NCBI RefSeq assembly: GCF_030013595.1
Contig: NZ_CP122768.1
DNA from: Escherichia coli
GTDB lineage: Bacteria; Pseudomonadota; Gammaproteobacteria; Enterobacterales; Enterobacteriaceae
DNA: 64,000 nt
Strand: one strand, 5' to 3'
A program made the translations under genes and the position numbers. Numbering within the stretch: position 1 is the stretch's first letter; each line of letters begins with the position of its first letter. This document shows, piece by piece, positions 35,568-36,105 of this stretch. The notes under the pieces are model-generated. The model searched no databases. It saw only the letters and a program-made list of their open reading frames with translations, and was not told where the DNA came from.

Positions 35568-35947
35568 AATGAATCCTTTTTCGATTTATGAGAATAAATA
35601 CTCATTTAAGAGTGAAAACATTTTGCCTGCAAATGATTATCAGGAAATATAACATTATCGAAGTATTCAAATTAACAACTATTAAATAATATTAAACATT
35701 TTTAACGTAAACATTAAGAATATTCATCTTGTTATCTGTCTGTATTTTAAACAGAATTAAATCAGTATTAGATGCCGTATGAATATCTCGAAATGTTGCT
35801 GTGTATCACATACAAATCATCACCGCAGGACCATAGTATTTACATAAGGTTTGTCCCCCGGAGGTAGTCATCGCAGCAATCGAGTAAATTAGCTTCACCA
35901 CGGTATATTGTTTCCGTAGAATACCCATAATTATAAGAGAGGTTGTT

Positions 35948-36007
35948 ATGATTGAACGTGAACTGGGGAACTGGAAAGACTTTATCGAAGTTATGCTTCG
36001 TAAGTAA
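35948..36007 (+). CDS. ypfM: small protein YpfM (19 aa, MIERELGNWKDFIEVMLRK)
   Basis: Own translation; SD gagagg 6-7 nt upstream; not in ORF track (below size cutoff). Confidence 0.7.
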   Translation: MIERELGNWKDFIEVMLRK

Positions 36008-36067
36008 TTCCTGAGACAAAGTACAAACAGCAAGAACCCGCTGAGCAGGTTCTTAATCGGAAAGTTG

Positions 36068-36102
36068 AAAAAGGCGACACATTGGCATGTCGCCTTTTTT
36101 AT
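36068..36102. terminator. bidirectional rho-independent terminator between ypfM (+) and acrD (-)
   Basis: aaaaaggcgacacattggcatgtcgccttttttatt: hairpin with A-tract on one side and T-tract on the other. Confidence 0.7.
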
Positions 36103-36105
36103 TGC

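Follow-up and report, generated by a model that had tools for sequence, protein, structure and literature searches.

The AT-rich yffB–acrD spacer of Escherichia coli carries the small-protein gene ypfM, with its own promoter, a predicted shared terminator and a small-RNA contact at its start

Introduction

The spacer between yffB and acrD in Escherichia coli raises a simple question: does this strongly AT-rich DNA contain a gene and, if so, on which strand is it read and how is it controlled? We addressed this question for a stretch of 64,000 nt from the E. coli contig NZ_CP122768.1 (assembly GCF_030013595.1), which is referred to here as the window; all positions are window coordinates unless stated otherwise. 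Two conflicting proposals were at hand. A mechanical list of open reading frames (ORFs) places a 75-aa ORF across the spacer, whereas a first-pass annotation, made by a reader without tools, picked out a 19-codon ORF on the opposite strand, named it ypfM and set the longer ORF aside. In this study, we show that the spacer is the already annotated E. coli ypfM locus, in another strain, and that the 19-codon ORF is a genuine gene. We consider it very probable that the account of the locus developed below holds as a whole, comprising a promoter, the ORF, a terminator, an AT-rich control region and a contact with small RNAs (sRNAs).

As a discovery this carries little weight, given that ypfM was annotated as far back as the early 2000s and that mass spectrometry has already revealed its peptide. 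The small protein is validated by proteomics, and its promoter, the association of the region with H-NS and the binding of its mRNA by Hfq are likewise known. The case is useful chiefly as a control, in which a reader without tools recovered a 19-codon gene overlooked by ORF tracks and rejected a longer antisense ORF. Beyond this, YpfM is conserved across the Enterobacterales and abundant enough for proteomics, and the locus offers leads on when and why the protein is made, namely a contact with the sRNAs ArcZ and SdsR at the start of the ORF, a constraint on synonymous sites in the same codons and a conserved distal upstream block.

Results

The gene is defined by two features on the + strand:

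35948-36007, +: ypfM coding sequence, 19 codons plus TAA, translating to MIERELGNWKDFIEVMLRK
35935-35942, +: Shine-Dalgarno sequence AAGAGAGG, 5 nt 5' of the ATG, read from the sequence

The first-pass annotation had described a 19-aa ORF with a good Shine-Dalgarno sequence, and this was borne out exactly, in the translation as well as in the position of the ribosome-binding site. When positions 35500-36200 were compared with complete E. coli genomes, 5425 of 5426 matched, one of them with 100% identity, and the features annotated by RefSeq under the match are ypfM, yffB and acrD, in the local order ypfN(-), dapE(-), yffB(-), ypfM(+), acrD(-). The 19-aa sequence is identical to that of the RefSeq ORF 'protein YpfM' at the same position; the counterpart in K-12 is b4606, 'uncharacterized protein YpfM' (2590807-2590866), and over the 217-nt transcript region K-12 derivatives, XL1-Blue included, show 100% DNA identity. 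In addition, the translation passed the NCBIfam equivalog model NF033843 (small_YpfM) with 59.2 bits (E 2.4e-16, cutoff 33), covering positions 1-19 of the 19 in this hidden Markov model (HMM). For this search the query was extended by one N-terminal residue, taken from the in-frame upstream codon, to reach 20 aa. Pfam is without a model for YpfM. The name given to the ORF and its placement in the yffB–acrD spacer were thus right, and YpfM (b4606, NF033843) and the ORF studied here agree in sequence, position between yffB and acrD, strand and HMM match, with no differences.

Conservation was assessed in 80 yffB loci, one genome per species. In 69 of them, a ypfM ORF with an ATG, a stop codon and a purine-rich Shine-Dalgarno sequence lies upstream of yffB and is read from the opposite strand; the genera concerned extend from Escherichia, Citrobacter, Salmonella, Klebsiella and Enterobacter to Erwinia, Pantoea, Dickeya, Yersinia and Serratia. 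The sequence AAGAGAGG itself is retained in most Enterobacteriaceae loci, the remainder having another purine-rich Shine-Dalgarno sequence. Among 52 distinct ypfM ORF sequences, 9 columns vary at the first codon position, 4 at the second and 16 at the third; six synonymous codons are used for Leu6 and five for Leu17, and residues W9, K10, F12, I13, M16 and L17 stay the same throughout, synonymous changes notwithstanding. This pattern of variation, together with the use of synonymous codons, argues that ypfM is under purifying selection as a protein. Translation has been documented directly: it has been reported that top-down mass spectrometry detected the intact peptide with 100% coverage and an N-formyl-Met, and that YpfM was also detected by data-independent acquisition (DIA) and parallel reaction monitoring (PRM) (PMC12529367). 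An earlier large proteome study is cited there as having detected YpfM (PMC12529367). The small-protein proteomics that the first-pass annotation had proposed as a check is therefore already in the literature (PMC12529367), and neither a missing translation signal nor a sequence differing from that of YpfM, which it had named as grounds for abandoning its reading, was found. Four independent lines, the equivalog match, the conservation in 69 of 80 loci, the codon pattern and the published peptide, thus identify the 19-codon ORF as a genuine gene. No ypfM entry is present in the supplement of Adams 2021 or in that of the MarA paper.

With a net charge of 0, a mean hydrophobicity of -0.12 and eight charged residues, YpfM has a helical hydrophobic moment (μH at 100°) of 0.546, compared with 0.268±0.133 in shuffled sequences (p≈0.03). 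Judged by these sequence properties, YpfM looks like a soluble amphipathic helix and not like a membrane helix.

The competing ORF of the mechanical list runs on the other strand:

35806-36033, -: 75-aa antisense ORF with a TTG start, from the mechanical ORF list; a spurious shadow of ypfM

No other ORF in the interval is as long, which is the one point in favour of regarding it as the real gene and ypfM as its shadow. However, it starts with TTG and begins within the 3' untranslated region (3' UTR) of ypfM, just downstream of the predicted terminator hairpin of acrD, and it stops or ends at varying places in E. albertii, Citrobacter, Salmonella, Klebsiella, Leclercia and Kosakonia. Furthermore, its conservation ceases beyond the part that faces ypfM and the Shine-Dalgarno sequence of that gene. 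We therefore regard the idea that the antisense ORF is the real gene as practically untenable, and the earlier judgement that it is 'probably spurious' is supported.

A second alternative arises from the RNA itself, the 3' part of which matches an Rfam family:

35987-36106, +: match to Rfam RF01409 (STnc250, Hfq-binding RNA), spanning the 3' UTR together with the final six codons of ypfM

The match scores 37.5 bits (E 2.7e-5), which is under the gathering score of 42, so that the family threshold is not reached. At orthologous positions the model gives 112.9 bits in Salmonella, 81.5 and 50.1 in Citrobacter, 43.1 in E. albertii and 40.8 in an Escherichia clade. The RNA in the window shares with the Salmonella STnc250 the position in the acrD/yffB spacer, the last six codons and the terminator, but differs in its score and in a 37-nt insertion in the 3' UTR, which contains a hairpin found in Escherichia and which accounts for the score below the threshold. 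The RNA is thus the positional orthologue of STnc250. Sittka et al. found STnc250 4-fold enriched in Hfq co-immunoprecipitates from Salmonella and equated it with the ypfM mRNA, 'a small mRNA gene' (PMC2515195). One could nevertheless read the locus as a non-coding, Hfq-binding sRNA in which the 19-codon ORF is incidental, in line with the classification of RF01409 as an sRNA gene by Rfam and with the E value of the E. coli match. However, the codon-position pattern of 9/4/16 with its many synonymous codons, the conservation of a Shine-Dalgarno sequence across loci and the passed NCBIfam equivalog model are those of a coding sequence, and the Rfam model itself starts inside the ORF. We count the intact formylated peptide (PMC12529367) as already refuting a non-coding locus, which leaves next to no probability for that reading, and conclude that the 'sRNA' label of STnc250 misnames what is the 3' part of a coding mRNA.

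Upstream of the ORF, a consensus scan identified the following promoter:

35894-35922, +: proximal ypfM promoter TTCACC-17-TAGAAT, with an inferred start at ~35929 and a 5' UTR of ~20 nt

Identical hexamers have been published as the ypfM promoter on the basis of genomic SELEX (systematic evolution of ligands by exponential enrichment) with RNA polymerase (PMC3946193), and both are conserved in 22 genera. Published occupancy data were placed on the window by converting the coordinates of Myers et al. 2013 (PMC3688515) from K-12 version 2 to version 3 (offset ~+1975), and the mapping from version 3 to the window was checked against yffB, ypfM and one fragment from crosslinking, ligation and hybrid sequencing (CLASH). 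A σ70 peak labelled ypfM from chromatin immunoprecipitation with sequencing (ChIP-seq; K-12 v2 2588887/2588903) maps to ~35936-35952 (PMC3688515), so that the proximal promoter lies ~15-30 nt upstream of the peak centre. The scan, the published hexamers, the conservation and the position of the σ70 peak thus point to the same proximal promoter. It has also been reported that σ70 occupies ypfM 2.5-fold more under anaerobic conditions (816 versus 322; PMC3688515).

Downstream of the ORF, two structures were found:

36066-36101, both strands: bidirectional intrinsic terminator common to ypfM (+) and acrD (-), from scan, folding and covariation
36032-36054, +: 3' UTR stem-loop aagaacc...ggttctt, specific to Escherichia

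The 36066-36101 hairpin is flanked by an A-run and, on the opposite side, by a T-run, and folds with -19 kcal/mol on the + strand and -18 kcal/mol on the - strand (z -4.6 and -5.5). Its helix of 12 pairs is 92.4% paired across 32 taxa; six pairs have changed on both sides, examples of compensatory change being GGCGAC/GTCGCC to GGCGGC/GCCGCC, GGCAGCC/GGCTGCC and AGCAGCA/TGCTGCT. The covariation score was reached in 0 of 500 shuffles, and pairing drops to 39-64% when the partners are slid against each other. An equivalent terminator lies 3' of ypfM in nearly all loci, with a median 3' UTR of 93 nt. As only 5 nt separate the hairpin from the acrD stop codon, the two convergent genes would share this terminator. 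The bidirectional terminator proposed in the first-pass annotation is accordingly a supported prediction, with two-strand folding and covariation in agreement. The stem-loop that it had placed after ypfM is also present, with -9.6 kcal/mol on the + strand (z -2.2) and -14.5 kcal/mol on the - strand (z -3.4), and can now be refined as specific to Escherichia: both E. albertii and a divergent Escherichia retain the stem but have different loops, and the small hairpins that other genera carry here are unrelated to it. Insertions resembling repetitive extragenic palindromic (REP) elements make the ypfM–acrD spacer longer in some loci of Citrobacter and Salmonella.

On its other side, ypfM is separated from yffB by a control region common to the two divergent genes:

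35568-35800, no strand: AT-rich island, 24.5% GC; divergent yffB/ypfM control region, within which lie the yffB promoter region and the long, AT-rich leader of that gene
35756-35783, -: published candidate yffB promoter TTCATA-16-TTTAAT, hexamers from PMC3946193

The GC content is 34% over 35570-36105 and 24.5% in the island, compared with 52.9% in the 64-kb window, and the 200-nt windows of lowest GC content (22.5%) start at 35561-35571. The strong AT-richness claimed for the spacer is thus confirmed, to the point that the GC minimum of the whole window lies within it. The first-pass annotation had further suggested that this DNA is curved or bound by H-NS. The second part of this suggestion stands, as the ypfM/yffB spacer has been flagged as H-NS-binding by genomic SELEX (PMC3946193), and H-NS intervals from chromatin immunoprecipitation on microarrays (ChIP-chip) map to 35862-36592 and 34881-35671 (PMC3688515). 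As for the conjectured curvature, there are only five A/T tracts of at least 4 bases (at 35577, 35615, 35621, 35699 and 35745), and no clear phasing of 10-11 bp was seen. An interval bound by IHF maps to 34959-35806, and yffB expression has been reported to depend on O2 only in a Δhns ΔstpA strain (PMC3688515). The yffB promoter motif has one exact match in the window and occurs in 0 of 100 shuffles. Among the σ70 peaks listed, none lies between the ypfM peak and one inside yffB, which leaves the yffB promoter in the AT-rich island without a listed σ70 peak.

Two single observations concern the same region. The strong σ70 ChIP-seq peak inside yffB (K-12 v2 2589585) maps to ~35254, within the 3' part of the gene, and therefore suggests an internal promoter for dapE. 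In addition, one Hfq CLASH chimera, a single read, joins ChiX to a ypfM-sense fragment at 35764-35792 (+); the fragment lies upstream of both candidate ypfM starts (the proximal one and the distal one discussed below) and overlaps the yffB promoter, and thus hints at rightward transcription inside the island.

The mRNA also takes part in contacts with sRNAs. The supplements of an E. coli Hfq CLASH study contain 13 ArcZ–ypfM hybrids, from exponential and transition phase, and the pair is flagged there as also found by RIL-seq, the sequencing of interacting RNAs after their ligation (PMC7213987). The ypfM side of these hybrids is the following segment:

35947-35974, +: ypfM segment in ArcZ CLASH chimeras, TATGATTGAACGTGAACTGGGGAACTGG, covering the start codon and codons 1-9 (PMC7213987)

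In one further chimera, a fragment from the SdsR region is linked to ypfM coding sequence, which extends the segment to 35981 (PMC7213987). The ArcZ and SdsR-region fragments share UUUCCCUGG, which is complementary to CUGGGGAA at 35963-35970. Changes at third codon positions were counted on a tree of 61 taxa built from dapE. The degenerate ones of ypfM have changed 6.9 times on average, compared with 13.6 times for third positions of dapE; the third positions of ypfM codons 5, 8 and 10 changed at most 2 times, and only 5.6% of dapE third positions changed at most once. Gly7 is encoded by GGG in 44 of the 48 sequences that have Gly, and Asn8 by AAC in all 46 that have Asn.

Discussion

The following account of the locus can be given. 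ypfM is transcribed rightward as a monocistronic small mRNA from the σ70 promoter TTCACC-17-TAGAAT, and the mRNA binds Hfq and is contacted in vivo at its start codon and codons 1-9 by ArcZ and probably by SdsR. H-NS and IHF occupy the control region, and H-NS would damp the yffB promoter. ArcZ, and possibly SdsR, sharing UUUCCCUGG, would pair with CUGGGGAA in codons 6-8, so that they may occlude the initiation region and block translation initiation; such pairing would explain the unusual conservation of synonymous sites. The protein would be a soluble amphipathic α-helix that acts through binding of a larger protein partner.

Several points weigh against parts of this account. A 2025 review still labels YpfM 'of unknown function'. 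The centre of the island (35671-35862) lies between the two H-NS ChIP-chip intervals and is not covered by them. The duplexes predicted by RNAduplex between ypfM and ArcZ (-15.5 kcal/mol) or SdsR (-15.6 kcal/mol) are no better than those of shuffled sequences (p 0.17 and 0.32), so that the case for pairing rests on the chimeras, and the low rate of synonymous change could also stem from constraints on translation initiation or mRNA stability. Finally, STnc250 gives a Northern band of ~220 nt in Salmonella (PMC2515195), whereas the predicted Salmonella transcript is ~150 nt from the proximal promoter and ~225 nt from a more distal start; as the band is longer than the proximal promoter would give, there may be a second start at a more distal site.

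Such a start could be provided by a conserved upstream block:

35796-35837, +: distal block, TTGC-N6-TCACAT (35796-35811), a fixed 20-nt spacer and CATAGT (35832-35837)

This block lies ~150 nt upstream of the ATG, and its sequence and spacing are kept in ~50 of 70 loci, all of them Enterobacteriaceae. It may be an activator-dependent second ypfM promoter, or an operator common to yffB and ypfM. If CATAGT is read as a -10 element, transcription would start at ~35844 and TCACA would occupy -38 to -34, as in class II promoters of the CRP/FNR type. One could therefore propose that ypfM is transcribed mainly from the distal block under an activator of this type and that the proximal promoter is secondary. 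The strict conservation of sequence and spacing, the activator-like placement of TCACA (our own reading), the fit of the ~225-nt transcript to the Northern band and the 2.5-fold rise in σ70 occupancy under anaerobic conditions would all be consistent with this proposal. However, the σ70 peak is centred at ~35936-35952, beside the proximal promoter and ~100 bp from the distal start, and Myers 2013 lists neither an FNR ChIP peak nor a predicted FNR site at ypfM or yffB. Moreover, the left half-site is poor for CRP, and the block could equally serve as an operator for yffB. We therefore regard a mainly distal transcription of ypfM as rather unlikely, though worth keeping in mind, and retain the proximal promoter as the principal one. 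A reading of the block as an FNR site is unsupported: TTGCT-N4-ATCAC matches at 8 of 10 positions in E. coli but at only 6 of 10 in other genera, and neither ypfM nor yffB is among the FNR peaks and predicted sites tabulated in Myers 2013.

With regard to the RNA, a more ambitious reading would be that codons 5-10 (GAA CUG GGG AAC UGG AAA) have been kept at the nucleotide level as an in vivo docking box for ArcZ and SdsR and that, together with the anaerobic rise in σ70 occupancy and the activator-type block, YpfM is gated by oxygen and growth phase, or that the RNA serves as a sponge for the two sRNAs. We offer this as a speculation that is more probably wrong than right by some distance. In a related proposal, ypfM would be a dual-function RNA that encodes YpfM and, through its conserved CUGGGGAAC box and Hfq-binding 3' end, also acts in trans, for example as a sponge for ArcZ and SdsR. 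This would fit with the reported association with Hfq (PMC2515195), with the number of chimeras recovered for so tiny an mRNA (13 with ArcZ and one with the SdsR region), with synonymous sites that are about twice as constrained as those of dapE, most strongly at the pairing box, and with a 3' end that resembles that of an sRNA in all genera (a small hairpin, an A/U-rich linker, a strong terminator and a U-tail). However, chimeras do not separate regulator from target, and the pairing site lies over the initiation region, as is usual for targets that are repressed; we know of no effect of the ypfM RNA on targets of ArcZ. Sittka et al. likewise concluded that it is 'a small mRNA gene' (PMC2515195). 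A function in trans is thus improbable, and we prefer to see ypfM as an mRNA whose initiation region would be the target of the sRNAs.

The layout of ypfM has parallels among known genes. Like yneM/mgtS (STnc570), another small-protein mRNA that initially came out of sRNA screens, and like the dual-function RNAs AzuCR and SgrS, it is a short, stand-alone and Hfq-associated transcript that has a tiny ORF, a promoter of its own and an intrinsic terminator. A base-pairing role in trans is only a candidate for ypfM. In contrast to MgtS, which is a transmembrane helix, YpfM is predicted to be soluble and amphipathic. STnc570/yneM was reported alongside STnc250 (PMC2515195).

The proximity of acrD invites a further comparison, with AcrZ, the small-protein partner of the efflux pump AcrB, since ypfM adjoins the gene of a pump of the same resistance-nodulation-division (RND) class. 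AcrZ is a transmembrane helix; unlike it, YpfM has a mean hydrophobicity of -0.12 and eight charged residues, and Dickeya and Yersinia artesiana have ypfM with no acrD next to it. Co-expression of ypfM and acrD is argued against by the convergent orientation of the two genes, and to our knowledge no interaction between YpfM and AcrD has been described. In 58 of the 69 ypfM-bearing loci the gene is divergent from yffB–dapE and convergent with acrD, and the distance from ypfM to the acrD stop codon is 75-225 nt in most of these 58 and 458 nt in Yersinia nurmii. About 8 full-length loci are without both ypfM and acrD, and most loci without an adjacent acrD are also without ypfM; the exceptions are Dickeya and Y. 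artesiana, which have ypfM, and in the other direction Erwinia endophytica, which has acrD but no detectable ypfM. This co-occurrence suggests physical linkage. A functional link between ypfM and acrD is not established, Dickeya and Y. artesiana keeping ypfM without an adjacent acrD.

A possible second copy of ypfM was also considered. Only weak tblastn matches were obtained (FIEVMLR and MIEREL, E>3), ~1.9 kb away and antisense to ypfH, where a frame reads RFIEVMLRHGKAQMIERELH and contains both halves of YpfM in reversed order (locus L006, 4847-4900, and equivalent positions in other loci). As the matches have E>3, are not colinear and lie antisense to the coding region of ypfH, they were dismissed as chance.

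The neighbouring genes in the window are as follows:

34080-35207, -: dapE
35211-35567, -: yffB
36106-39219, -: acrD, stop codon at 36106-36108

The AT-rich ypfM spacer is a target of the insertion sequence (IS) IS1 in two E. coli strains. In strain 81, an IS1-bounded deletion has removed ypfM, acrD and narQ, up to aegA, and in strain Res13-Sevr-PER06-05-b-A, IS1 lies within early ypfM codons and an altered 'YpfM' annotation remains. These two disrupted strains show that ypfM is dispensable.

A different element lies farther upstream. An IS3-family element, annotated elsewhere as IS1397, occupies 32438-33795 (context 30649-34076), between yphA/hcaD and ypfN. As yphA/hcaD and ypfN are ~80 kb apart in K-12, an IS-associated rearrangement is implied in the present strain. 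The yphA–IS1397 junction is common to 58 genomes and, among the matches listed, none runs through to ypfN. In E. albertii, the region downstream of ypfN contains a match to Rfam naRNA4 (CssrE, a REP-derived nucleoid-associated RNA) with 82.1 bits (locus L003, 4766-4846).

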